Origin: an uncultured virus (IMG/VR IMGVR_UViG_3300033150_001117)
Lineage: Duplodnaviria > Heunggongvirae > Uroviricota > Caudoviricetes
Direction: 5' to 3' (one strand)
DNA: 20,000 nucleotides
Virus record (IMG/VR): IMGVR_UViG_3300033150_001117
The notes under the pieces are model-generated. The model was not told the origin of the DNA, ran no database searches, and saw only the letters and a list, made by a program, of their open reading frames with translations. Shown one piece after another: positions 1,053-19,423 of the stretch; the first letter of the stretch is position 1; each line of letters opens with the position of its first letter. A program made the position numbers and the translations under genes.

Positions 1053-1478
1053 TTAGAACACGTCCGGCAGCTCTTCGCCGATGAACACAGCCTCCGGACC
1101 CTCCCAGTCGTTGACCCGTTCACTGCACTTGTCGACGGCCTCCTGAGCGCTGCTTGCTCTCGTGGTCGCGTGGTGGCGAAGACCAGTGACCCGCCAGTAG
1201 CCGTGCTTGCCGTTGTCCGGGTGATTGGCCAGCCGCTCCCGCCGCTTCTCGTCAGCCGCCTGGAAGCAAGGCCGCAGGGCGGCTGCGAGTTCGTCGAAAG
1301 GCGGGACGGCGTCCCTCCTGGCTTTACAGCCGGGGTTCGCAGCAAGGTGTTTCTCGTGCATGGCCTTGATTGCGTTGTAGCTGTCCATGAATCCCCCGCC
1401 GGGGATCTGGTGGTCGAACAGTTCGTCGCAATAGGGACAGGCACTTAGGACGTGGTTGCCGACTTGGGCGATTTCCAT
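1053..1478 (-). CDS. Hypothetical phage protein (CPYC motif)
   Basis: 141 aa ORF with GGGGAG upstream of ATG; last gene of the minus-strand arm, convergent with the GT. Confidence 0.65.
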   Translation of the reverse strand: MEIAQVGNHVLSACPYCDELFDHQIPGGGFMDSYNAIKAMHEKHLAANPGCKARRDAVPPFDELAAALRPCFQAADEKRRERLANHPDNGKHGYWRVTGLRHHATTRASSAQEAVDKCSERVNDWEGPEAVFIGEELPDVF

Positions 1479-1582: not shown

Positions 1583-1771
1583 CTAGGCATCATCTTGCCA
1601 CGTTCGCGACCGCCACCGCGACCGCGACCCCGACCCGGAGCCCGACCGCGACCCGGAGCCACACCGCGAGCCAGACCGCGACCAAAACCCCGACCCCGAC
1701 CACGAGCGTGACCACGACCCCGAGCCCGACCGCGACTGCAGGCGTGATCTCTTATTCGCAGGCATCAGCAT
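1583..1771 (-). CDS. Ser/Gly/Arg/Trp-rich repeat peptide, unit 5 (62 aa)
   Basis: MLMPANKRSR leader then (S-X)n; G-run before ATG. Confidence 0.6.
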   Translation of the reverse strand: MLMPANKRSRLQSRSGSGSWSRSWSGSGFWSRSGSRCGSGSRSGSGSGSRSRWRSRTWQDDA

Positions 1772-1772
1772 A

Positions 1773-2003
1773 TCACCCCCCCCACGCCTCAGACCGCGAC
1801 CACGAGCGCGAGCGCGACCCCGAGCGCGACCCAGACCACGACCGCGACCGTGACCACGCTCGCGAGCGCGACCCCGACCGCGAGCCAGACCACGACCCAG
1901 ACCCAGACCCCGAGCCTGACCACGACCACAACCCCGAGCCTGACCACGACCCGGACGACAGCCACATCCGCGGGCGTGATCTCTTATTCGCAGGTGTCAG
2001 CAT
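1773..2003 (-). CDS. Ser/Gly/Arg/Trp-rich repeat peptide, unit 4 (76 aa)
   Basis: MLTPANKRSRPR leader, (S-X)n core, ends SEAWGG*. Confidence 0.6.
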   Translation of the reverse strand: MLTPANKRSRPRMWLSSGSWSGSGLWSWSGSGSGSGSWSGSRSGSRSRAWSRSRSWSGSRSGSRSRSWSRSEAWGG

Positions 2004-2242
2004 ATCGCCCCCCCCCACGCCTCAGACCGCGAGCCAGAGCCAGACCGTGGCCCCGACCGCGACTCGGACCACGTCCGCGACCCCGACCACGAGCGTGACC
2101 ACGACCCCGAGCCCGACCGCGAGCCAGACCACGACCCCGACCCAGACCCCGATGCCGATCCTGACCCCGTCCACGAGCCAGACCACGACCGCGACCACGG
2201 CCACAACCGCGAGCGCAACCTCTTGTTGGCAGGTGTCAGCAT
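1997..2242 (-). CDS. Ser/Gly/Arg/Trp-rich repeat peptide, unit 3 (81 aa)
   Basis: MLTPANKRLR leader, ends SEAWGGAIC*; ATGCTGA start/stop overlap. Confidence 0.6.
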   Translation of the reverse strand: MLTPANKRLRSRLWPWSRSWSGSWTGSGSASGSGSGSWSGSRSGSGSWSRSWSGSRTWSESRSGPRSGSGSRSEAWGGAIC

Positions 2243-2451
2243 ATCGCCCCACCCCCCGACCGCGACCACGCCCGCGAACCAGACCCCGACCGCGACCGCG
2301 AGCCACACCACACCCCCGACCTTGACCCCGAGCCTGACCACGACCGCGGGCGCGACCATGACCACGACCCCGCCCCCGACCCCGACCGCAACCACGCCCG
2401 CGACCCCGACCACGAGCGCGGGCGTGATCTCTTGTTCGCAGGCATCAGCAT
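2236..2451 (-). CDS. Ser/Gly/Arg/Trp-rich repeat peptide, unit 2 (71 aa)
   Basis: MLMPANKRSRPR leader, ends GGGAIC*; ATGCTGA overlap. Confidence 0.6.
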   Translation of the reverse strand: MLMPANKRSRPRSWSGSRAWLRSGSGAGSWSWSRPRSWSGSGSRSGVWCGSRSRSGSGSRAWSRSGGGAIC

Positions 2452-2684
2452 ACCGCCCCCCCCCACGCCTCAGACCGCGAGCCAGACCGCGACCACGCCC
2501 CCGACCGCGAGCCAGACCGCGACCCCGATCGCGACCACGAGCGAGAGCGCGAGCCACACCGCGAGCCAGACCGCGACCACACCCCTGACCCCGACCACGA
2601 CCACGACCACAACCCCGACCCTGACCACAACCCCGACGACGGCCACGTCCGCGGGCGTGATCTCTTATTCGCAGGTGTCAGCAT
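2445..2684 (-). CDS. Ser/Gly/Arg/Trp-rich repeat peptide, unit 1 (79 aa)
   Basis: MLTPANKRSRPR leader, ends SEAWGGAVC*; start overlaps the stop of the Sm-like gene. Confidence 0.6.
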   Translation of the reverse strand: MLTPANKRSRPRTWPSSGLWSGSGLWSWSWSGSGVWSRSGSRCGSRSRSWSRSGSRSGSRSGAWSRSGSRSEAWGGAVC

Positions 2685-2935
2685 ATCGCCCCCCCCCACG
2701 ATTCGATCGCTGCTCGCATCACACGCCACTTCGAGGGCAGAGCTTGAGCGTCTTTCCATTCGCCCGCAGTCCATGGGCCCGTCTCGTATACCACCTCTGC
2801 TTTGTCCAGTTCGAGGTGGTCATCGCTGACGCCGACGAGTGTCCCGGCGTAAATGTAGATGCCACAGATCAAGACGACGTTTTCGCCGATCATCGACTCG
2901 AAGCCGCCTTCTGTGGTTTCAATCAGACGTTTCAT
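2678..2935 (-). CDS. Small Sm/LSm-like (SH3-type beta-barrel) protein
   Basis: FESMIGENVVLICGIYIYAGTLVGVSDDHLELDKAEVV matches the Sm1 pattern (helix-IG.xV.h...Y.G.L.G.D....L..A). AAGGAGG lies upstream of ATG 2935. Confidence 0.65.
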   Translation of the reverse strand: MKRLIETTEGGFESMIGENVVLICGIYIYAGTLVGVSDDHLELDKAEVVYETGPWTAGEWKDAQALPSKWRVMRAAIESWGGAIC

Positions 2936-3320
2936 CGCAACCTCCTTTTCTTTCTGCGGCAATAGCCGCGTTCATTCTGCCCCGGCACTGCCACGTCGCC
3001 AAGTCGATCTCAAAATCTTCAGGGCCGTGGCCAAAATACGAATAGCTGGATTTCGCGCTAGTGGCTCCCCGTTTCGCCTTTTCGTGATTGCATAACCACT
3101 TGGCTAGCGGCGGGTCGCCCCGATGGTAGGCATTGGCATCAGCGTACAAGGCCGCTGCGTAAAGCCCACAGGGATGCTTGTAGTTGGCGGCATAATGCAG
3201 CAGAGCGTCCTCGGGCGCCATTCGAGTTGCCTCTCCCTGGACGAATCCCTTGCACGTATCCGAAAAAACCGGCGCTGCGAAGCTTTCGGCAACAACAAAA
3301 TACTCTGACATTTCAGTCAC
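2919..3320 (-). CDS. Hypothetical phage protein
   Basis: 133 aa ORF of protein-like composition within the operon; start may be ATG 3311. Confidence 0.65.
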   Translation of the reverse strand: MTEMSEYFVVAESFAAPVFSDTCKGFVQGEATRMAPEDALLHYAANYKHPCGLYAAALYADANAYHRGDPPLAKWLCNHEKAKRGATSAKSSYSYFGHGPEDFEIDLATWQCRGRMNAAIAAERKGGCDETSD

Positions 3321-3593: not shown

Positions 3594-3985
3594 AGATTCG
3601 CTCCCGTCCTTCCAGGCACTTCTCGCAGGCGGCTAATTTCCTCGGCCTGCCAAAGGATTGCGTAACGCATCGCCAGGTCGAGGGTCTCGCTGCCGTCGCC
3701 CGGCAGCGGCGGTAAATCCGTCTCGCGTATGATCCTCACCGTGCTGTGCACGAGAGCCGACATCTCAGCCATTGTTGTCTTCTCTGACAGCCGCTCGCCC
3801 TCGGTTATGGTGGCATCCCGGACCTGTTCGGGTTGCGGCCACAACGACGGATGCACGATCTTACGAAGTTGTTCCAGCAGATGCTCAGCAAACCCCGTCC
3901 CGGGGTGCTTGGCTGCCTCGTCGCTGATCAACGAAATCACGGTTTCGACGGCCTCGCGTGCCGCGACGTTCTGTTCTGTGCTCAC
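3581..3985 (-). CDS. Hypothetical protein
   Basis: 134 aa helical ORF, GTGA-coupled to the recT stop. Confidence 0.6.
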   Translation of the reverse strand: MSTEQNVAAREAVETVISLISDEAAKHPGTGFAEHLLEQLRKIVHPSLWPQPEQVRDATITEGERLSEKTTMAEMSALVHSTVRIIRETDLPPLPGDGSETLDLAMRYAILWQAEEISRLREVPGRTGANLARR

Positions 3986-4779
3986 GCCCCGTCCCCTTCG
4001 TCCATTGATGCCAGGTCGATCGTTTTATCACCAGCCGGCGGCGGCAGCAGATCCACCCCGAGGTCCTGTGGCTCGCCGAGTTCGGCTTGCTCTTCCAGGC
4101 GTAAGGCCAGGGACAATTCCGTCGTCAGCCGCCAATAATTTGCCGCGGCCCGTACCGGCGTCTTACGGACCATCGCCGGGTAGTGCTCTCCCTTCCACAG
4201 CGGGCCGCCTCGCTTCTCGACTTCGTCGATCTCCGCCCTCGACATGTACCTGTGGGCCAGCCCGCCGCCGGCCGTCTCGTAGAGGCAATACGCCCCAACC
4301 AGCCGATCCCTCACGGCCTTGGCCGTCAGCGCTCGCCCGGGCGGCACTGAGTGCTGGACCACCGGCCGCGAGTCCCGCACGCCGACGAAGAACTCTTCTC
4401 CCTGCAGCACCAGGTCGGCGTAGACCCACCGCAGGTAGTTGTTTCGCGTAGCCAGGTTGATGTAGCCCTGGTAGCTGATCTCCAGGTTGCATCGGGCCTT
4501 CGGATCGGATCGCCGCAGCTTGCGAGGGACGAAGTAGGCGAGCTTCATCATCCGGCCAGGCACCAGGCCGATCATCGCCGCGTGGGCCGCCGAGACCAGG
4601 ACGGACTCCGGCGTGCACGATCCCTCCTTGAGTTCGTTGGCCGCGACGACGACGGCCGCCGCGAACTGCTGCCGGTCGATCGCCCCCGTGTTCAACAGGG
4701 GCACGATACGGTCGAGTTCCTTCGAGACGTACTTTGCCAGCTCGTTGCGAGCCGCCGGCAGGATTAGCTCGGGTCCCAT
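3982..4779 (-). CDS. recT: RecT-family ssDNA annealing recombinase
   Basis: Motifs AYFVP, LEISYQGYINLA, VGAY, YMSRAEID and W...YPAMVRKTPVRAAANYW; immediately downstream of an exonuclease gene. Confidence 0.9.
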   Translation of the reverse strand: MGPELILPAARNELAKYVSKELDRIVPLLNTGAIDRQQFAAAVVVAANELKEGSCTPESVLVSAAHAAMIGLVPGRMMKLAYFVPRKLRRSDPKARCNLEISYQGYINLATRNNYLRWVYADLVLQGEEFFVGVRDSRPVVQHSVPPGRALTAKAVRDRLVGAYCLYETAGGGLAHRYMSRAEIDEVEKRGGPLWKGEHYPAMVRKTPVRAAANYWRLTTELSLALRLEEQAELGEPQDLGVDLLPPPAGDKTIDLASMDEGDGA

Positions 4780-4780
4780 A

Positions 4781-5746
4781 TCACGTTCCTTCTGGTCGTT
4801 GTTTCGCCCACCAAGGCAGGCCGCCGCGGTGAATGGTCGGGTACGCCCCCGGCCACTGATTCGTGTCCGTCGCTACTGCAAACAACGCAAGTAGCCGTCG
4901 ATATTTCAGCCTCCCCATGTCTAATGTTTCCGTGTCCGCTTGTACACAATTTACATCGTGCGGCCAAGAGTCCTCGATAGCGAGCCAGACGAACTGCCGC
5001 TCGATGCCGTCCGCCGCCTTGAGCCCGTCGAGGTAGAGGGCGGCCTGGGTGTCGTAATGCCGCTCCTCGATCGAGCGGGCGAACGCCGCGTCACAGTGCT
5101 TGCCCCGCCGCACCTTCTTTAGATCCACGCAGCACGGCGGGATCGACTTCGGCTGCGGGATGTCCTTGTCCACGCGGCCCTTCATGCGGATCACCGCCTG
5201 CCGCTCCTGGCCCTGCGCGACGTAGCTCACCGGCTGGTCCCAGACGAACGAACGCTCGACGCCGCCTTGGGCCTTGAGCAGCTTGACCGCCGGGTGCTGC
5301 TGTATCTCAGCAGCGAGGTTCTCGATGGCATCCGCCTGCAAGGCCGTGATGGTCCCCGGCGGCCGCTCGGCCCACTCCGGGGCGTGCGTGCCGCAGTACC
5401 AGTGGCCGTCGAAACGCTTGATCGCCTGGTAGCTGCACGGCTGCCCCTTGCTCTCGCCGGATTGGAGCACGGCGTGGCACTGCCCGGCAATCGGGTGCCG
5501 CTCGGCGAACTTTGCCGGCTCAAGGAGTCTCGTGTGCATCGCCCAGCCGAAGTCGATGTCCTTGGACTCCGGCTCCTCGATCTTGCCGTCCAGGTACGCC
5601 TTCAGGTGTTTCATCGATACCGTGCCGTCATCGAGCAACGCCTTGGCAAGCGTGCTGTTGTTCAGGTGTGGCCATGCGAGATATTCGTTGAACGGCACTC
5701 CCGGGTAGACGCCCGGCGGCGGCTCGGCTGTCGGTGGCTGAATCAT
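4781..5746 (-). CDS. RecE/exonuclease VIII-like PD-(D/E)XK nuclease (DUF3799-like)
   Basis: PGVYPGVPFNEY, FGWAMH..LLEP, KGRVD, VDLK, YDTQAALYLDG and WPG.Y motifs; AAGGAGGGG RBS; paired with recT. Confidence 0.85.
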   Translation of the reverse strand: MIQPPTAEPPPGVYPGVPFNEYLAWPHLNNSTLAKALLDDGTVSMKHLKAYLDGKIEEPESKDIDFGWAMHTRLLEPAKFAERHPIAGQCHAVLQSGESKGQPCSYQAIKRFDGHWYCGTHAPEWAERPPGTITALQADAIENLAAEIQQHPAVKLLKAQGGVERSFVWDQPVSYVAQGQERQAVIRMKGRVDKDIPQPKSIPPCCVDLKKVRRGKHCDAAFARSIEERHYDTQAALYLDGLKAADGIERQFVWLAIEDSWPHDVNCVQADTETLDMGRLKYRRLLALFAVATDTNQWPGAYPTIHRGGLPWWAKQRPEGT

Positions 5747-6107: not shown

Positions 6108-6644
6108 TTACGCTGCGCCTTCCATTGTTTTCCGGAGGCCGGCGTATGCCGCGACCACCGGGGAAAACTCCTGCATGAACTCGTCGTACCGCTCGTAGCG
6201 CCGCAGCCAGGCCAGAAAATCCGCGTGGGCCCGCTCCAGCACGGACTGCCTAAGCGACGGATTGTCGGCCACCCTTCGCGTGGGCACGTAGTTCTTTTCG
6301 GGAATCCTGCCGTACCGCTCCCGTTTTATGGCCACGTAAGCTACCACCGGCCGCGAGATCACCTCACTAGTCTTTACATCGATCCGCACTACGTTTATAT
6401 GCCGGAGGACGTCCTGCGCGGCCTGGCGCCAGTATATCCTTGCGGCCTTTGTGCGGTTGACCTCGATCAGCCCATATAAAGGACTGCTCTTGCGTTTGCA
6501 CTCCCGCACCAGCTCTTCCGGCGTCGGTTTCCGGTCCCTGAACTTGGGCTGGGCTCGCCACTTGAGCAGCGCGTTTTTCTGTTGCTTGTTGCCGTACCGC
6601 AAGTTTGGTGATAGCTGGTACAGAACCTTGATTTTACTTTTCAC
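6108..6644 (-). CDS. Basic hypothetical protein downstream of the pentamer array (candidate accessory of the RAMP-like system)
   Basis: AAAGGAG RBS before GTG 6644 (the ORF-track extension to 6773 is just array read-through). TPEELV...SPLY.LIE....AA..YW.Q.A...LR.I resembles a recurrent phage family. Confidence 0.75.
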   Translation of the reverse strand: MKSKIKVLYQLSPNLRYGNKQQKNALLKWRAQPKFRDRKPTPEELVRECKRKSSPLYGLIEVNRTKAARIYWRQAAQDVLRHINVVRIDVKTSEVISRPVVAYVAIKRERYGRIPEKNYVPTRRVADNPSLRQSVLERAHADFLAWLRRYERYDEFMQEFSPVVAAYAGLRKTMEGAA

Positions 6645-6670: not shown

Positions 6671-7135
6671 TCCGCTCCGGCCGTTCCACTCCGTTCCCTT
6701 CCGATCCACTCCGCTCCATTCCTTTCCGGTCCGTTACGGCCACTCCACTCCGTTCCGGTCCACTCCGTTCCAATCCGCTCCGGTCCTTTCCACTCCGGCC
6801 GCTCCTGTCCTATCCCCTCCATTCCATTCCGATCCTCTCCGCTCCAATCCGCTCCAATCCGGTCCTTTCCAATCCGGCCGCTCCTCTCCAATCCTATCCT
6901 CTCCTATCCCGTCCCATCCGCTCCCGTCCCATCCGCTGCGGCCGCTCCTTTCCCCTCCACTCCATTCCACTCCACTCCCTTCCGATCCTCTCCGGCCGCT
7001 CCAGTCCCTTCCGCTCCGTTCCCGTCCAATCCGATCCTGTCCTCTCCGCTCCGCTCCGGCCGTTTCGATCCGATCCGCTCCGGCCGCTCCAATCCGTTCC
7101 GATCCGATCCGTGCCGCTCCCCTCCTGGCCGCTTC
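6671..7135 (-). repeat. Punctuated pentamer array (NN-GGA)n, probable non-coding guide-RNA array
   Basis: About 85 TCCNN units on the + strand with near-invariant TCC and highly variable NN. Phase shifts by one base at (C)GGCC(G) sites 6678, 6737, 6796, 6875, 6939, 6993, 7057, 7081 and 7126. Ends in CTTTCTTTTT on the - strand. Confidence 0.95.
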
Positions 7136-7153
7136 GCTTGCGAGCTACTTCAA

Positions 7154-7882
7154 TCAGCGGACGGTGAAGCCGCCGCACTCGCCCTGCTTCTTCTCCGCTC
7201 GCATCTCGCACAACCCGATGTACTGCCCCGCGTGCATGAAGAGGTTCGTTATCTGCTCTTCAGTAAGCACCGCCCGGTTGAACTTGATGCGGAGCGTGAT
7301 CGTCCAGCCGTGAAACATGGGCCGGTGGCGCATGTCGGGAACGGTCTTGACGCAGCTACCGATATTCACGGCCCGCACGTCGCGCTCCAGCTTCTCGAAT
7401 TGCAGCTCGCAGAGCCCGGCCTCGTCGGCCATCACTTGAAAGGACTTGGCTATCAAGCCGATCGTCGTGTTGTCCGTGATCCCCGTGGTGCGGATGGCCG
7501 AGCAAACACACTTTTGGATGCCGCTCGCAGGGATGCCGTATTTCGCCTTCGGGTGCGGCGGCCGCTGCTTGCTGCTCGGCATGACATAAAACGCCTTGGC
7601 ATATGCCTCGTCGTGACTGGCCCGAGGTTTCTTTACGTGGCCCGCCTTCCCGCGGCCGCCGTACTGTCCGGCAATCTCTTCGGCCACGTTCATCTTGTTG
7701 TTGACGAGCAGCGGCCGATCGCCGACCAACAACAGGGTCATCTCACCTTGCTGCAAAGGCGGGATCACTACGGTCTTGGTCTCCGCCTTGCCTTTCGCGG
7801 AGGCCGGCTTCAAGCTACCCTTGCCGTCCCGGTTAGTAACGGGCTTCGCCGCGACTCTTCGCGTTTCGGAAGTTGTACGCAT
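7154..7882 (-). CDS. Stand-alone RAMP/Cas7-like RNA-binding protein (Vipr-like), 242 aa
   Basis: RAMP hallmarks: first strand LLLVGDRPLLVN, YGIPASGIQKCVCSA (cf. IPGSSLKG), RHRPMFHGWTITLRIKF, and C-terminal G-rich loop AGQYIGLCEMR..K.GECGGFTV. GAAAGGA RBS before ATG 7882. Confidence 0.75.
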   Translation of the reverse strand: MRTTSETRRVAAKPVTNRDGKGSLKPASAKGKAETKTVVIPPLQQGEMTLLLVGDRPLLVNNKMNVAEEIAGQYGGRGKAGHVKKPRASHDEAYAKAFYVMPSSKQRPPHPKAKYGIPASGIQKCVCSAIRTTGITDNTTIGLIAKSFQVMADEAGLCELQFEKLERDVRAVNIGSCVKTVPDMRHRPMFHGWTITLRIKFNRAVLTEEQITNLFMHAGQYIGLCEMRAEKKQGECGGFTVR

Positions 7883-8031
7883 GGTTAATTGTCCTTTCGA
7901 TTGAGGAACCGTGAATTGAATACCTTGAAACTGTCCGCCCGCCCGGAGCCGGCTACGCCGCCGGCGCCCGGCGACCACACTCCGATTCTCAGGGATTTTA
8001 CCGGGCCGAGCCCGGGCGAGCGGCACGATCG

Positions 8032-8306: not shown

Positions 8307-10214
8307 CTAACGCCAGCCCAGGATGCGGCAGCCGTACTGTTTGGATTGTATCGCCAGATCGTATCCGCCGCGGCGGAATATCGCTCCCTCATCCGTGCGC
8401 TCAGCGATTTCAGGAAACGTCGATTCTTTAGTCGTCTTGTAGGCGACCCAGTCCTGCCCCTCCCGTCTGATGCGGCACTCGACGCCGGCCGGCACCGTGT
8501 AGACGATCTCCAGGTCGCGGAACCCGCATGGCCGGCCACGCCGCTTGGCCATCCACCGGCGCTTGCCGTCCTCAGGCAGGAACGACCAGCCACCCGGCCG
8601 CGTGGCGAGGTGCGTCATCACGTCGCTAGCCTCGGCCAGCGACATCTCCGGATCGAAGCCGCGGCTCCGCAGGATGCGCATCTGCTTGTAGCTGCTGCGG
8701 CCCTCGCGGGACCGCCTGGCCGACTCCGCGAGGAGCTGCCTGGCCTGGGTGTAGCTCAAACCCTTGTCCGGAATGCCGAGCTCCTTGAGTTTGGCCACCT
8801 GATCGTCGTCCGGCGGCAGGCCGCGCCACCAGGCCGGCGACGCCTCCTCGACGAAGCCGACCGCATCGGCGAAGATCACGAACGGGTCGATGGTCTTCCG
8901 CGTGGCCTTGGCCTCGGCGATTACCTTGGCTCGGGCGGCCGCCCGTATGTCGGCGGCCTGCGCCTTGACCGCCAGCACCTCTTCCAGCACGTCGGCCGGT
9001 GTGTCCCCCGCGGCGGCGAACACGCGGGCAGCCGCCTCGTCCCGCAGTTCGGCATCCAACTTCCCGCCGAGCAGATCGGCCGTGGTTGCCAGCTTGTGCT
9101 TGAGCGACGCGCCCACGAGATCAATTACCAGGCAGTCGGTTTTGCCCTCCACCGGAGCCAGCGGCCCGCCCCGCAGGCCTCGCCCGACCATCTGTGCGAG
9201 GAGCATCCGGCTGAGCGTGGGCCTGGCAATCACGATCGCCGATACGGCCGGGAAGTCGGTGCCTTCCAAGAAGACGCCGCAGTTGACCAGCGTTTGGAAC
9301 TCCCGCCGCCGGAACGCCTCGACAATCGCCCGGCGCTCCTCGTCCTTGGTCCCTCCCGACACCCACCGCACGCCCCTGTCCGTGTAGCGAGGCAGAATCT
9401 CCGCGACAAGCTGGGCGACGCGAACGGTCGGCGTGAAGACCAGCGTCTGCCGATCCCCGATCATCGGAACCACCGGGGCCACAATCTTGTGTATCGCCTC
9501 TTCCTGCCCAATTACCGCTTCCAGATCCTCTGCAGACAGGTCGCCGCTGCCCGTCTTGCGGACCTCCGACCAGTCGAGATCGTCTAGCCGGACGTACTGC
9601 TGCTTGACCGGGGCGAGCCAGCCGTCCCGGATACCGTCGATCAGCTCGTAGTGGTACGCAACGTTGTCGAAGAATGTGCCGAGGGGGATCTCGTCCGCAC
9701 GATCAGTGGTAGCGGTAATTCCACATACCTTTGCCGGCTGGAAATAGCCAAGGACTGTCTGGTACGACTCCGCCACAGCATGGTGGCACTCGTCGAGAAT
9801 CACGAAGCCGTGAGCGTCCGGCGCGAACTGCTCGCGCCGGTTCTCTCTCAGCATCGTCTGGATCGAGGCCACGACCACGGCTCGGCCGGCCATCGACGGC
9901 TGCCTGGCAATCGACCGCTCGCCCTTCTCGATGGCTGCCGGTTCGCCGGTGAAATGCTCGCACGCCTCGGCCGCCTGCTCGATCAGCTCGTCGCGGTGGG
10001 CGAGCCAGAGCACGCGCGGAGGCAGCCCGAAGTCTGAGGCCAGGTCGTAGTTGCACCACGCGTCGGCCAGGTACGCGCCGAGGATAGTCTTGCCGGTGCC
10101 GCACGGCATGGAGACCAGCAGGCGATCGTGTTGCCGGAGCTTGGTGCACACCGCGTGCACCGCCTCGTTCTGGTAGGCGCGGAGTTCGATCATGCCAGGT
10201 ACTTGTTCCCGCAT
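8307..10214 (-). CDS. Superfamily 2 DExH helicase (ResIII/IRC3/YejH-like)
   Basis: Q motif LRAYQ, Walker A MPCGTGKT, LAHRDEL, DECHH, GITAT, FLEGTD and QMVGRGLR. Confidence 0.92.
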   Translation of the reverse strand: MREQVPGMIELRAYQNEAVHAVCTKLRQHDRLLVSMPCGTGKTILGAYLADAWCNYDLASDFGLPPRVLWLAHRDELIEQAAEACEHFTGEPAAIEKGERSIARQPSMAGRAVVVASIQTMLRENRREQFAPDAHGFVILDECHHAVAESYQTVLGYFQPAKVCGITATTDRADEIPLGTFFDNVAYHYELIDGIRDGWLAPVKQQYVRLDDLDWSEVRKTGSGDLSAEDLEAVIGQEEAIHKIVAPVVPMIGDRQTLVFTPTVRVAQLVAEILPRYTDRGVRWVSGGTKDEERRAIVEAFRRREFQTLVNCGVFLEGTDFPAVSAIVIARPTLSRMLLAQMVGRGLRGGPLAPVEGKTDCLVIDLVGASLKHKLATTADLLGGKLDAELRDEAAARVFAAAGDTPADVLEEVLAVKAQAADIRAAARAKVIAEAKATRKTIDPFVIFADAVGFVEEASPAWWRGLPPDDDQVAKLKELGIPDKGLSYTQARQLLAESARRSREGRSSYKQMRILRSRGFDPEMSLAEASDVMTHLATRPGGWSFLPEDGKRRWMAKRRGRPCGFRDLEIVYTVPAGVECRIRREGQDWVAYKTTKESTFPEIAERTDEGAIFRRGGYDLAIQSKQYGCRILGWR

Positions 10215-15251: not shown

Positions 15252-15440
15252 ATGCGAAAAACTGAACGATTGCCACGCCGGGAGTTTCTCAACTGTTGTC
15301 CGGAGGAAAGCCTTGAGGACTTCCGACGCCGACTGGAGGAACAGTGGGAACACGGCTGTGAGGAAGTCGAGTTCACCGTTGACTCGATGGGGCGGATCGA
15401 CAGCGAGTCAAGTCCTCGACCAGCCTGCCCGGAGAAATGA
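15252..15440 (+). CDS. Small acidic hypothetical protein
   Basis: AAGGAG RBS; ATGA-coupled to the XRE gene. Confidence 0.6.
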   Translation: MRKTERLPRREFLNCCPEESLEDFRRRLEEQWEHGCEEVEFTVDSMGRIDSESSPRPACPEK

Positions 15441-15703
15441 CCATGGCGGGACGGACCATCCGGCGGCCAGATGAGATTTGGCCACAGATCCGCGAGTGTC
15501 GGGAGGCGAAGGGTTGGACGCAGACCGAGCTGGCCAAGCGGATCGGGGTCGCGCCGTCATACATTTCGTTGATCGAGGGGGGCGGTCGGCCGGAGTTGTC
15601 GGTCGGGATGCTGCTGCGCCTGGCGGACGCGCTGGAGACCGGCTGGTGCTACGACGGCGATCGGATCATGTTCCGCCAGACCAGCCTGACCCCTGACCCC
15701 TGA
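15437..15703 (+). CDS. XRE/Cro-CI family HTH regulator
   Basis: IRECREAKGWTQTELAKRIGVAPSYISLIEGG...LLRLADALE. Confidence 0.9.
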   Translation: MTMAGRTIRRPDEIWPQIRECREAKGWTQTELAKRIGVAPSYISLIEGGGRPELSVGMLLRLADALETGWCYDGDRIMFRQTSLTPDP

Positions 15704-16220: not shown

Positions 16221-16963
16221 AGGTATACAACACCACAAAGTACCCCAATTATTTCTTGCGGCGCATGGTTGCATGGTGCTGCCGGGAGATCGGGCTGCCG
16301 CTGAGACATGTTCGGGAGGCAACGTTCCGCAAGGGCGGGCGGTACCATCCGCGAGGTATTGCGGCATCGGGGCGCGCCTATTTCAACAGCGGACGGATCG
16401 TAGTCACGCACGGCTGTGCTGAGCCGATTTTTATCGACTACCAACAACGGAATGTAGCGCAGGTCAATAAAAGCCACGGGACGAACTGCCGCGATCCAGT
16501 GAACGTCGGAGGCCGAATCGTAGAGCGAGAGCAGGCAGCAGACCTGTTGCAACAGGAAAGGAGCGAGGGCGAGAGAGCTGTGCTTGACAGTTTGGTCAGC
16601 ACAACGGCCCACGAGCTGGTGCACCTGTGGTTCTACCACCAGGTCTCGATGACGCGGCGTGGCCGCCGGTCGGGCGGCTCCGAACGAGAGACATGCTGGC
16701 ACGAGAGGCAAGTGATGAAGAAATTCAGGGCCAGCCGCGACGAACTGCTCACTGCCTGGGGGAAGGAGCCGATGAAGAGGGCCGTGAAACCAAGGGTATC
16801 GCTCCAAGAGAAACGGGCCCAGGCGGCCAGGAAGAAACTCGCCGAGTGGACGCGGAAGCAACGGCTCGCCGCAACGAAGGTCAAGCAGTACAAGGCGAAG
16901 GTTCGCTACTACGATCGGGCAATGGCTGCGAAGAAAAGGGGGGCAAGTGATGAGTCTGATTGA
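16217..16963 (+). CDS. HExxH zincin (SprT-like) metallopeptidase-domain protein with basic coiled tail
   Basis: SGRAY strand, TTAHELVHL and downstream SE; GTGA-coupled start at 16217 with GAGGAG RBS. Confidence 0.7.
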   Translation: MKVYNTTKYPNYFLRRMVAWCCREIGLPLRHVREATFRKGGRYHPRGIAASGRAYFNSGRIVVTHGCAEPIFIDYQQRNVAQVNKSHGTNCRDPVNVGGRIVEREQAADLLQQERSEGERAVLDSLVSTTAHELVHLWFYHQVSMTRRGRRSGGSERETCWHERQVMKKFRASRDELLTAWGKEPMKRAVKPRVSLQEKRAQAARKKLAEWTRKQRLAATKVKQYKAKVRYYDRAMAAKKRGASDESD

Positions 16964-18503
16964 ACAACTGAGGCACGCCCGCCGGGTATCGGTGCCGCTC
17001 GTGGCGGTGCAGACGCCCGACCCGGCGGCCACGATGCAAACGATCGCCGCGTCGGACCTCAACGGCAAGCCCCCGCCGATCGTGGCGTGGGACATCGTGA
17101 GGGGCTGCCGACCGATCAATCTTGCCGGCAAGGAAGTCGCCGCGATCGACGGCGAGGACTCGATCGGGAATCCCGTCGCCTTCCTGGAGGCGGCCGTGAA
17201 GTTCCCGCCCCGGACGATCGCGTTCGTCTGCAACGCGCAGGAGTGCATGGACGCGCCTGTGTTCAGGCAAGGCGTCTGGAACCTCCGCGACCAGTTCAAG
17301 CGTGACCGGCGGATGCTCGTGCTATTGGCGCCGTCACTGGAGCTGCCGCCGTCGCTCAAGGATGATGTGGTGATGTTCGACGAACCGTTACCCGACGCGG
17401 AGGCCCTGGCTCGGATCGTGCGTGAGCAGGACGAGGCTGCCAATATCTGCTCGACCTGCGGCGGCAACGGCACGGATGCCGGGCTGGAGTGCGAAGAGTG
17501 CCACGGCTCGGGCAAGAGCAACCGCAAGTCAGCCGACGAGGGGACGGTCGCCCGGGCGGTCGCCGCAACGCAGGGCCTCTCAGCGTTCGCTGCCGAGCAA
17601 GCTGTGGCCATGTCCCTGCGCCCCGGCGGGATCGATCTCGACCACCTCTGGGAGAGCAAGCGGCAGCAGATCGAGCAGACGCCGGGCCTGTCGGTCTGGC
17701 GGGGCGGTGAGACGTTCGCCGATGTGTGCGGTTTAGCGCACGTGAAGAAGTTCCTTGGGCGGGTGCTCACGGGCAACCGTAAGCCTGACGCGGTATGCTG
17801 GGTGGACGAATTGGAGAAGATGGTCGCCGGCAGCGATGGGCAGTTCTCGGACTCCTCCGGCGTCTCGCAGGGAATCCTGCAGGCCCTGCTGACACACATG
17901 CAGGACCACGAGGCCCGCGGCCTGATCCTGCTCGGTCCCCCGGGAACCGGCAAGTCGCTACTGGCGAAGGCGACCGGCGGCGAGGCTGGCGTGCCGACGA
18001 TCGCATGGGACAGCAACGCGATGAAGGCCTCGCTGGTCGGTCAAAGCGAGGGCAACGTCAGGTCGGCATTAAAGGTGGTCTCAGCCGTGAGCGGCGACCG
18101 CTGCCTCTGGATCGCCACCTGCAACTCGGTCAGCGGCATCCCCACGGCGCTGCGGCGAAGGTTCGGCTACGGGATGTACTTCGTCGATCTCCCGGACTCG
18201 CAAGAGCGGAGCGCCATCTGGCGGTACTACCTGGCGCGACACGGATTCAGCCCAAAGAAAACAGAACTGCCGGCGGACGATGGCTGGACTGGGGCGGAGA
18301 TCCGCACGTGCTGCGAGCTGGCGTCCGACCTGAATTGCAAGCTCAGCGAGACGGCGGCTTACATCGTCCCTGTAGCCCTGGCCATGCCGGACGAGATCCA
18401 GGACCTCCGGAAGGAGGCGGACGGCAAGTACATGTCGGCCAGCCGCCCGTCAGTGTACCGCGCTCGCGGCGACGAGGCGCGTGGCCGGGACATCTGTGTA
18501 TAA
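16950..18503 (+). CDS. Ycf46-like AAA+ ATPase with permuted motif order and CxxCxGxG zinc-finger insert
   Basis: Degenerate N-terminal ATPase-like domain (LELPPSLKDDVVMFDEPLPD), GPPGTGKS, LVGQSE, IATCN, LRRRF, FVDLPD..ER..IW and GWTGAEI. Confidence 0.88.
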   Translation: MSLIEQLRHARRVSVPLVAVQTPDPAATMQTIAASDLNGKPPPIVAWDIVRGCRPINLAGKEVAAIDGEDSIGNPVAFLEAAVKFPPRTIAFVCNAQECMDAPVFRQGVWNLRDQFKRDRRMLVLLAPSLELPPSLKDDVVMFDEPLPDAEALARIVREQDEAANICSTCGGNGTDAGLECEECHGSGKSNRKSADEGTVARAVAATQGLSAFAAEQAVAMSLRPGGIDLDHLWESKRQQIEQTPGLSVWRGGETFADVCGLAHVKKFLGRVLTGNRKPDAVCWVDELEKMVAGSDGQFSDSSGVSQGILQALLTHMQDHEARGLILLGPPGTGKSLLAKATGGEAGVPTIAWDSNAMKASLVGQSEGNVRSALKVVSAVSGDRCLWIATCNSVSGIPTALRRRFGYGMYFVDLPDSQERSAIWRYYLARHGFSPKKTELPADDGWTGAEIRTCCELASDLNCKLSETAAYIVPVALAMPDEIQDLRKEADGKYMSASRPSVYRARGDEARGRDICV

Positions 18504-18514
18504 TGGAGGGTACA

Positions 18515-19423
18515 ATGAACGCTTCGCACAATCAGACGATGGCAGAGGCCATTCAGTCGGGCACCGTCATCTTGGAGGTGATCTTCCACAAGCCGGGAAT
18601 GACCCGCAGGGGCGACCTCGGCAAGGTCGAGACGGCCGCGGATAAAAACCAGCTTGGCCTGTCGAAAAAGATAATCAACTCGCCGGAGTACCGGGCGGTG
18701 CTGCACGTGGCCAAGGCCTGTCGGGAGTACCTCAAGGCCCTGGAGCTGGAGGCCCCATTCAAGACGGGGCGGCACCTCCTGCCGCTAAAGTTATTGCAGA
18801 AGGCGTACAGTCGCGTGGAGGAGGCCGAGACGGCCTACTCGGAGGCGGCGGACGCTTTCGTGGCCGTCTACCCGGCCCAGATCGAAATGGCCAAGGCGTC
18901 GCTGGCCGACCAGTTCGACCCGGCCGACTATCCCGACGCCGCCGAACTTCGCAAGCAGTTCTGGGTCGAGCGGCGGGTGTCGAGCTGGGACACGCCCGGC
19001 GAGGCGAAGATCGGCGAGTACCTGTACGAGCGGGAGTCGGCGCGCGTGGCGGAGGAGCTGTCGAGCGTTGCCGAGGACGCTAAGTTCGCCCTGCGTGAGG
19101 GGCTGCGGGGGCTGGCTACGGGGCTGGCGGAGAGCCTCGGCGAGCGGCCGGACGGCAAGCGAAGGCGGCTGAGCGCGTCGACGCTGGCGAAGGTCAGCGA
19201 CTGGCTGGCTTCCTTCGACGCCCGCAACGTATTGGGCGACTCGGAGCTGGCCGCCGTGGTGACGGACCTGCGGAGCGTCATCAACGGCCGCGGCCTCACG
19301 GAACTACGGACCAACGACGGCATGAGGGCGGCTGTGAAGGCCGAGCTGGAGAGGGCGGGCAAGACGCTGGACGACTTGCTGGTCGACGCGCCGGCGAGGG
19401 CAATTAGCTTCGGGGACGATTGA
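18515..19423 (+). CDS. DUF3150-like helical protein
   Basis: GGAGG before ATG 18515; G.HLLP, F...YP and FDPADYP pattern; adjacent to the AAA ATPase. The track ORF extension to 17795 is spurious. Confidence 0.6.
   Translation: MNASHNQTMAEAIQSGTVILEVIFHKPGMTRRGDLGKVETAADKNQLGLSKKIINSPEYRAVLHVAKACREYLKALELEAPFKTGRHLLPLKLLQKAYSRVEEAETAYSEAADAFVAVYPAQIEMAKASLADQFDPADYPDAAELRKQFWVERRVSSWDTPGEAKIGEYLYERESARVAEELSSVAEDAKFALREGLRGLATGLAESLGERPDGKRRRLSASTLAKVSDWLASFDARNVLGDSELAAVVTDLRSVINGRGLTELRTNDGMRAAVKAELERAGKTLDDLLVDAPARAISFGDD

Follow-up and report, generated by a model that had tools for sequence, protein, structure and literature searches.

We analyzed a 20,000-nucleotide (nt) stretch from an uncultured virus of the class Caudoviricetes (IMG/VR record IMGVR_UViG_3300033150_001117), referred to here as the window, and found on its minus strand a gene for an Sm-like protein followed by five short genes encoding peptides built from serine dipeptide repeats (Table 1; all coordinates are those of the whole window). 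The evidence strongly supports a conserved two-gene module, in which an acidic protein of ~85 amino acids (aa) with a predicted Sm/LSm fold is followed by a translationally coupled gene for a basic protein predicted to be disordered. This second gene consists of a short Lys/Arg leader and then 20 to 40 Ser-(Gly/Arg/Trp) dipeptides, which we abbreviate Ser-X. Comparison of the five copies in the window strongly supports the view that the second gene and the final ~22 nt of the Sm-like gene were jointly and tandemly amplified into diverged units, numbered 1 to 5 from the Sm-like gene. Judging from the sequence comparisons described below, these are very probably real coding microprotein genes of the conserved module. 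The original prediction, made from the letters of the window, had described an Sm-like gene and five coupled mini-genes with ML(T/M)PANKR leaders and Ser-X cores, and the open reading frames (ORFs) and sequence agree with it on all of these features.

The fold of the 85-aa protein was modeled with AlphaFold2 on an alignment of 81 family members (alignment A3), in which the window protein was 39 to 67% identical to the 80 other members. The model (pLDDT 92.2, pTM 0.81) has a short helix at residues 12 to 15 and then strands, in agreement with the short N-terminal helix and strongly bent five-stranded antiparallel β-sheet barrel that characterize the Sm/LSm structural class. When the model was compared with the PDB using Foldseek, the best matches were archaeal and eukaryotic/spliceosomal Sm/LSm chains (best E value 9e-4, probability 1.00). 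A Foldseek-independent search, VIA, over 48,161 chains gave a Z score of 10.4 to an Lsm protein of S. pombe (6ppv), with 67 aligned residues and a root mean square deviation of 2.0. Thirty-seven of the 48,161 chains reached a Z score of ≥8; those listed were almost all Sm/LSm/Edc3-LSm chains, and the remainder among the matches listed were Sm-fold subunits of NatC complexes and one uncharacterized P. furiosus protein. These structural matches strongly support a predicted Sm/LSm fold and bear out the name that the gene had been given from its letters.

The window protein has a net charge of −6 and a pI of 4.55, and the median charge of the family is −3. The family consensus (alignment A3) includes a near-invariant Asn37 after strand 2 and an ...AIES(F/W)G motif at the C terminus. 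A copy 99% identical to the window protein is present in the protein collection (P0001), and another entry, P0008, carries a tandem double Sm-like domain within one protein. The nearest Atlas clusters of the Sm-like protein are unnamed viral proteins, with the Pfam family Phage_Hfq (PF23874) as the Atlas lead at a score of 0.79. The family profile had no match among PDB sequences at an E value of ≤10.

Homologs of the 85-aa protein were recovered from 203 of 271 candidate stretches in viral contigs (IMG/VR), from 5 of 7 in species genomes, and from at least 579 of 598 in metagenomes. When the family profile was run against 1.84 billion cluster representatives, it retrieved 545 proteins at an E value of ≤1e-3 and 366 at ≤1e-10. 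A word-index protein search, which returned 7 homologs only, badly underestimated the family relative to the pattern-based searches. Only one of 50,697 GenBank phage records contained the module gene; it is a metagenome-assembled genome, and neither gene is annotated there.

We kept 165 loci from pattern-based locus searches and looked downstream of the homolog, where the related loci show a strong 6-nt periodicity. In nine loci inspected by eye, this sequence held one small ORF, with a start codon that overlapped or abutted the upstream stop codon (ATGA, GTGA, ATGTTGA), a short basic leader, and a (Ser-X)n repeat. With an automatic criterion of at least six Ser-X dipeptides in an ORF starting −40 to +200 nt from the stop, a Ser-X repeat ORF was found directly after the homolog in 134 of the 165 loci. 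Sixteen of the 31 misses had ≤234 nt of sequence past the gene. The other 15 were inspected by eye: 9 had a short or variant array (L008, L010/L116, L033, L054/L055, L077, L091, L137), and 6 had no array within 420 nt, among them L118, which has three Ser-X ORFs 676 nt further on. Conserved synteny in the related loci confirms, as far as sequence comparison can, that the pairing is real beyond chance. Leaders of the MLMPxNKR type are common to the window, L001, L084 to L092, and L098.

Several loci depart from the usual arrangement. In L118, and likewise in L113, an extra gene of ~200 codons lies between the Sm-like gene and three Ser-X ORFs, and the Sm-like/Ser-X coupling is therefore not obligatory. 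The variant array of L077 (positions 2960 to 3200) has many of its Ser codons (TCA) swapped for Ala (GCA), resulting in a mixed Ser/Ala-X repeat. In P0009, P0015, and P0023, the gene calls have N termini that read a hexamer array in a Val-rich frame upstream of the Sm-like domain; the array therefore also precedes the Sm-like gene in some contigs, where it has been miscalled.

Codon statistics were compiled from 111 distinct arrays with 2380 dipeptides. The first codon was always Ser (TCT 896, TCG 668, AGC 465, TCA 186, AGT 128, TCC 37), and the dominant Ser codon of the array was TCT in 40 cases, TCG in 37, AGC in 18, TCA in 9, AGT in 6, and TCC in 1, so that an AGY codon dominated in 24 of the 111. 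TCN and AGY codons have nothing in common except that they mean serine. Within the window's own clade, which has MLMP leaders and ATGNTGA coupling, the Ser codon is TCG in the window and L001, AGC in L083 to L087 and L092, TCA in L088, and TCT in L090 and L098. Mapping the TCN/AGY state onto a quick maximum-likelihood tree of 93 Sm-like proteins with 17 AGY rows required at least 14 changes, compared with 13 to 17 in the ten label shuffles listed. This pattern reflects either very fast turnover of the codon family or the exchange of arrays between phages, and under both the nucleotide identity of the Ser half is uncoupled from the partner protein.

The second residue was Gly, Arg, or Trp in 2201 of the 2380 positions (92.5%; Gly 873, Arg 674, Trp 654, other 179). 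The original prediction had noted the same preference, and NGG codons, in the window, where X is one of these three residues at 107 of 112 positions and is encoded by NGG at 79 of 112. An ATG lay no more than 30 codons upstream in the Ser frame of 89 of 99 arrays, against 5 to 16 in the other five frames, and a stop codon no more than 5 codons past the array in 81 of 99, against 6 to 25, counts that are partly circular in that the arrays were gathered via a Ser-frame ORF (99 distinct complete peptides). Across the related arrays, codon usage, starts, and stops strongly support the reading of the repeats as protein, in the Ser frame. The earlier remark that every core stays open was true of this frame but uninformative: the window cores contain no stop codon in any of the three minus-strand frames or in two of the three plus-strand frames. 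Reading the arrays as poly(Arg-Gly)/(Leu-Gly)/(Ala-Gly), which would make the variable base silent, was considered and rejected. That frame has a start codon in only 5 of 99 arrays, and its constant residue differs from one array to another (Leu 35, Arg 25, Gly 20, Ala 13, Val 4).

The 99 distinct peptides have a median length of 63 aa (range, 27 to 105) and a median net charge of +11 (range, 4 to 17), and they are composed of 39% Ser, 16% Gly, 15% Arg, and 12% Trp. Their leaders comprise 4 to 15 residues (longer only if a degenerate array start is counted), are rich in Lys and Arg, and often include K-Q-K-(Y/W)-R. Trp occurs in 99 of 99 arrays, and its share varies less than expected from a binomial distribution (standard deviation, 0.083 versus 0.102); identical neighbors at X were observed 569 times versus 600 expected, of 2077. 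Because every array holds Trp at an underdispersed share, with no excess of identical neighbors, the composition looks held and well mixed, not arranged in runs. An AlphaFold2 model of unit 1, built on a 15-sequence alignment, had a pLDDT of 47.4 and no secondary structure, in line with the predicted disorder of the Ser-X peptides. This model and the unit alignment fit the earlier idea of RS-like peptides, predicted to be disordered, paired with an Sm-fold protein. None of the five window peptides, nor those of L098 and L001, was present with these boundaries in a collection of 15 billion proteins, and a homology search with unit 1 returned nothing at an E value of ≤1e-3.

The alignment of the five units (77% mean column identity) revealed how the copies in the window are likely to have arisen. 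A 22-nt segment, GTGGGGGGGGGCGATATGCTGA, is common to the 3′ end of the Sm-like gene and the unit ends, and it consists of a G run and, 4 nt further on, an ATG overlapping the TGA of the gene before it. All five units have the ATG, the G run 4 nt upstream, and the stop/start overlap. Since the Sm-like gene and the units have this segment in common at their ends, the amplified unit takes in the last ~22 nt of the upstream gene, as the original prediction had proposed for the 3′ end with its ATGCTGA coupling. Also as noted there, the ends of units 1 to 4 echo the WGGAIC* end of the Sm-like gene; unit 4 ends at WGG* because its G run has 8 G instead of 9 and is then followed by TGA.

Tandem Repeats Finder reported periods of 6, 12, 18, 30, 42, and 54 nt and, at a higher order, of 239 and 209 nt. 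In their first 90 nt, units 1 and 4 are the closest pair (82/90), units 2 and 5 come next (75/90), and the remaining pairs share 64 to 72 positions, so the resemblance of 1 to 4 and of 2 to 5 noted in the original prediction holds up. The start-to-start distances, 681 nt from unit 1 to unit 4 and 680 nt from unit 2 to unit 5, agree with the duplication of a block of about three units. The amplification probably proceeded by unequal recombination within the hexamer arrays, with units 1/2 giving rise to units 4/5 in a block duplication. The window arrays are more degenerate than most, with GGC or CGC in 24 of 112 X codons, and the copies keep the start codon, G run, frame, and composition. The five copies are the highest number that we observed: of the 107 distinct loci that had ≥300 nt of downstream sequence, 8 contained no Ser-X ORF, 75 contained one, 18 two, and 6 three. 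The term "hypervariable" in the original prediction, if taken to mean directed diversification, found no backing. No reverse transcriptase family occurs among the window ORFs, and the only repeats found were the units themselves.

Logan contigs from a public DNA run (X1) represent a related strain whose flanks show 11 differences over 659 nt. They include both flanks and short fragments with the junctions of units 1, 3, 4, and 5, in the same order as in the window, and show that several distinct units exist outside the window assembly. One X1 contig joins 2245 to 2493, omitting 247 nt (one unit, unit 2) and having 7 other letters in between, and another is one base short in a C/G homopolymer at 2008 (2006 to 2014, the junction of units 3 and 4). 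These may reflect copy-number and homopolymer polymorphism or may be unitig artifacts; the X1 contigs are unitigs that break in repeats, leave bins 2305 to 2478 uncovered, and cannot fix the copy number. One public RNA run (X4) had no contig on the window stretch, and the exact junction DNA pattern had 0 matches in viral contigs.

We favor, at slightly better than even confidence, an overall explanation in which the module combines polycationic peptides with an Sm-like ring. The comparison of arrays strongly supports evolution by hexamer turnover within a codon set (any Ser codon plus NGG) in which a change of the variable first base of NGG gives Gly, Arg, or Trp and never a stop. In the favored explanation, the peptides would be nucleic-acid-binding polycations, in which Arg and Trp would be "stickers" (electrostatic contacts and stacking) and Ser and Gly would be flexible "spacers." They would act with the acidic Sm-like ring on RNA or single-stranded DNA (ssDNA) early in infection, or be chaperoned or buffered by it, and the dosage of peptide to ring would be set by copy number. 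Such an arrangement would have parallels in Sm cores bearing Arg-Gly tails or in the acidic chaperones that serve basic nucleic-acid-binding proteins. This mechanism, of peptides working with a ring on nucleic acid, is a tentative proposal that we hold to be somewhat less than an even chance. Slightly more doubtful is its most specific form, a two-part condensing/chaperoning system in which the acidic Sm-like ring would load or buffer protamine-like (Ser-[Gly/Arg/Trp])n peptides onto RNA or ssDNA and in which stop-proof codons would let slippage and amplification (1 to 5 copies) retune length, charge, and dosage.

Several observations weigh against this explanation, in addition to the partial circularity of the frame counts. 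The 85-aa window protein matched no Pfam Sm family (0 matches at an E value of ≤0.01) and no PHROG family, and of the 81 members of alignment A3, one matched LSM (E value 0.042) and one LSM14 (E value 0.13). Its acidity is unusual for an RNA binder. No protein fusing the Sm-like domain to the repeat was found among 24 longer relatives, most of which had N-terminal extensions or upstream read-through. Because five of the six frames are open, the frame in the window is identified from the start codons and from related loci. Finally, the codon usage goes beyond what protein selection alone would give. The third base of the X codon was G in 2159 of 2380 dipeptides (NGG), with Gly encoded by GGG 842 times versus 31 for the other codons and Arg by AGG or CGG 663 times versus 11. 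A constraint on the nucleotides therefore exists beside, or in competition with, the one on the protein.

The best-surviving alternative, which we consider unlikely, is that the peptides are cationic Arg/Trp-rich effectors directed against host membranes, ribosomes, or the nucleoid, with the acidic Sm-like protein as a chaperone or antidote and not an RNA binder. The charges of +9 to +13 and the 5 to 9 Trp residues of each window peptide, set beside a partner with a pI of 4.55, are consistent with this idea, as are the variable copy number and a strict gene order and coupling like those of toxin/antidote pairs. The peptides would then be comparable to the (RW)n antimicrobial peptides or to poly-GR/PR dipeptide repeats; Arg/Trp peptides are membrane active, and poly-GR binds rRNA. 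The Ser-X peptides, however, lack a signal peptide and any hydrophobic segment, and their hydrophobic moment is low because Ser alternates with the other residues. The genes around the module, moreover, serve replication and recombination and not lysis.

The nucleotide-level signal raises a second alternative, that the functional entity is a nucleic acid, namely, RNA or DNA with an (NGG + 3 nt)n repeat, which would serve as a ligand of the Sm-like ring or adopt a G-quadruplex-type structure and be translated only incidentally. Essentially every array has a GG at 6-nt intervals, which could, instead or also, be relevant to RNA or DNA, for example in G-quadruplex-type structures. The G at the third base persists despite synonymous alternatives, regular arrays vary at one base per hexamer only, and five of the six window frames are open. 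Arrays of the TCT type also fold far better than shuffled sequences (median z score, −4.5; L098, −7.1), and in these arrays, for instance at positions 6240 to 6460 of L098, the (TCT-NGG)n RNA is self-complementary via G-U pairs and forms one long hairpin, which the TCA and TCG types do not. Folding is not conserved, however: it was worse than that of shuffles in TCG arrays (median z score, +2.1) and TCA arrays (+4.7), and unit 1 of the window scored +0.36. A conserved RNA hairpin was rejected as a candidate on the grounds that the folding z score depends on the Ser codon type. A sequence-specific motif also does not predict that the remaining three bases can be any Ser codon (TCN or AGY), with at least 14 switches of family, and it is in the Ser frame that leader peptide, start codon, and stop placement are conserved. 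No Rfam 15 family matched at an E value of ≤1 between positions 1000 and 3500 on both strands, a search that an undescribed RNA escapes.

We prefer another explanation for the NGG bias. A change in the first base of NGG yields AGG or CGG (Arg), GGG (Gly), or TGG (Trp) and no stop. Trp has the single codon TGG, the units would interconvert by one first-base change, and slippage would homogenize the rest. The presence of Trp in all 99 arrays at an underdispersed share and the lack of an excess of identical neighbors fit this explanation. On balance, a nucleic acid as the functional entity seems improbable to us. The original prediction had allowed for a constraint acting mainly on the hexamer, or for a repeat-RNA/Sm-ring system, and both fared poorly against the AGY-dominated arrays, the dependence of folding on codon type, and the lack of a match to the described families of Rfam.

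A run of NGG codons (AGG, CGG, GGG, TGG), which are often rare, might alternatively act as a translational sensor or brake on downstream genes, the peptide itself being unimportant. The almost exclusive use of NGG codons, inside an operon of coupled genes, is what such a brake would look like, but the choice of Arg codon follows genome G+C content (CGG in the window and L001, AGG in AT-richer arrays), pointing to composition and not rarity. Moreover, Trp content stays within narrow limits, and the window array is the last feature before a gap of ~100 nt and the next gene, which makes this explanation very improbable. We give least credence of all to the five units being an assembly artifact, decaying junk duplicates, or precursors of ribosomally synthesized and posttranslationally modified peptides (RiPPs; the original prediction had spoken of precursor peptides). 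Short-read assemblies do break in the array, and the window arrays are more degenerate than most. Against this, four different unit junctions recur in unchanged order in the contigs of another run, 24 of 107 loci are multicopy, the ATG, G run, frame, and family-typical composition are retained in all five units, and no RiPP enzyme family occurs among the 27 window ORFs or the 150 neighbor ORFs of 25 loci, many of these ORFs being familyless.

The combination of an Sm-fold core with a basic, disordered dipeptide repeat rich in Arg and Gly recalls the eukaryotic proteins SmB, SmD1, SmD3, and LSm4, whose Sm cores bear Arg-Gly dipeptide tails. In the phage module, in contrast, the repeat is a separate, translationally coupled gene in 1 to 5 copies, with no fused form among the 24 longer relatives; its dipeptide is Ser-X, with Trp as a third partner; and the acidic core is without a match to Pfam LSM. 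C9orf72 poly-GR and poly-PR offer another parallel, since there, too, a hexanucleotide array is translated into an Arg-rich polycation of dipeptide repeats, with RNA or low-complexity proteins as binding partners. Those dipeptide-repeat proteins arise from pathological non-AUG translation of a noncoding expansion, whereas the phage arrays have a dedicated start, leader, and stop and are conserved across hundreds of phages.

Two other groups of Sm-like proteins from mobile elements or phages are relevant. In the passages of PMC9879509 that concern them, the Sm ribonucleoproteins of Borgs are described as having a disordered region, encoded by perfect tandem repeats, fused at the N terminus, with units of 4 to 17 aa and with the Sm1 and Sm2 motifs kept. 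They resemble the phage module in tying an Sm protein of a mobile element to a tandem-repeat disordered region whose repeats evolve fast, and they differ from it in that the phage repeat is unfused, has dipeptide units, and occurs in bacterial phage contigs. In all of the Sm comparisons the repeat is joined to the core and is of a type other than Ser-X. The T4 proteins GoF, MotB.1, and Frd.2 (PMC12152347, abstract) and Phage_Hfq (PF23874) are early phage proteins predicted to adopt an LSm-like fold and suspected of acting on RNA. We detected no sequence relation between any of these and the window Sm-like protein, and the abstract of PMC12152347 mentions no repeat-peptide partner.

We found no description of an Sm-like plus Ser-X module in the open-access literature, and the module appears to be undescribed. 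It represents a hidden gene class, in that these abundant phage genes escape gene callers and databases. It also illustrates an evolutionary mode in which repeats that look like noncoding microsatellites nevertheless carry a clear protein-level signal, and in which a protein can evolve by hexamer turnover in a codon set where no change at the variable base produces a stop. Should the Sm-like protein and the peptides act jointly on nucleic acids, the module would be a prokaryotic-virus counterpart of the Sm cores that carry Arg-rich tails, with core and tail encoded separately and their dosage tunable. What the window contributes is the highest copy number that we observed and a likely amplification route, in which the duplicated unit carries the Sm-like 3′ end.

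The module genes of the window and the assigned genes upstream of them are listed in Table 1. A TTG at 2962 is also in frame with the Sm-like ORF.

Table 1. Features of the Sm-like/Ser-X module and of upstream genes in the window. The unit start codons begin at 2684, 2451, 2242, 2003, and 1771. SD, Shine-Dalgarno.
Feature	Position	Strand	Size	Characteristics	Basis
Sm-like gene	2678..2935	-	85 aa	ATG at 2935, TGA stop at 2678	ORF call
Shared junction	2678..2699	-		G9 run (SD-like), then ATGCTGA, where the start of the next ORF overlaps the TGA stop	Sequence and five-unit alignment
Unit 1	2445..2684	-	79 aa	Leader MLTPANKR, end GGAVC*; net charge +12	
Unit 2	2236..2451	-	71 aa	Leader MLMPANKR, end GGAIC*; net charge +13	
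Unit 3	1997..2242	-	81 aa	Leader MLTPANKR, end GGAIC*; net charge +9	
Unit 4	1773..2003	-	76 aa	Leader MLTPANKR, end WGG*; net charge +12	
Unit 5	1583..1771	-	62 aa	Leader MLMPANKR, unique end WQDDA*; net charge +10	
RecT gene	3982-4779	-		Upstream of module	Family searches
PD-(D/E)XK exonuclease gene	4781-5746	-		Upstream of module	Family searches
SF2 helicase gene	8307-10214	-		Upstream of module	Family searches

Between the Sm-like gene and the RecT gene lie two ORFs without a known family on the same strand. The gene content strongly supports the view that this region is the distal end of a phage early (DNA metabolism/recombination) operon on the minus strand. The neighbors of the module in 25 diverse loci include helicases, RecT, PD-(D/E)XK nucleases, AAA_24, Gp157, and DNA methylases, as well as primase-helicase, clamp, clamp loader, HU, and HNH proteins, and with such replication and recombination neighbors the module therefore sits in DNA metabolism/early regions. 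There was no constant third partner gene across these 25 loci. Scans of the window found no promoter-like sites, no tRNA, and two terminator-like sites, both on the plus strand and no more numerous than in shuffled sequences.

In the closest IMG/VR relative, L001, positions 7047 to 7949 encode a DUF1559/prepilin-type N-methyl protein (E value 1e-54). We take this family to be typical of Planctomycetes and so, presumably, a hint at the host range of the window's clade.

Past the array in the window, a 141-aa ORF (1053 to 1478, minus strand) has a CPYC motif, no Pfam family, and a weak PHROG match (phrog_6065, E value 0.005). It converges with a glycosyltransferase-like ORF on the plus strand (39 to 1043), a weak match below the Pfam cutoff (E value 2e-4), and the phage region may end at this convergence. 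At the other side of the window, a 518-aa protein (16947 to 18503, plus strand) has an AAA ATPase core and a match to a DnaJ-type CXXCXGXG zinc finger; it matches phrog_8638 (E value 4e-44), a family with no assigned function, and its gene overlaps a 542-aa familyless ORF at 17795 to 19423. Between 11400 and 12000, the minus-strand early operon and the plus-strand genes diverge, and the sign of the GC skew flips near 12 kb. Together with an HTH_3 (Cro/CI-type) gene at 15437 to 15703, this divergent switch resembles the layout of a temperate-phage control region.

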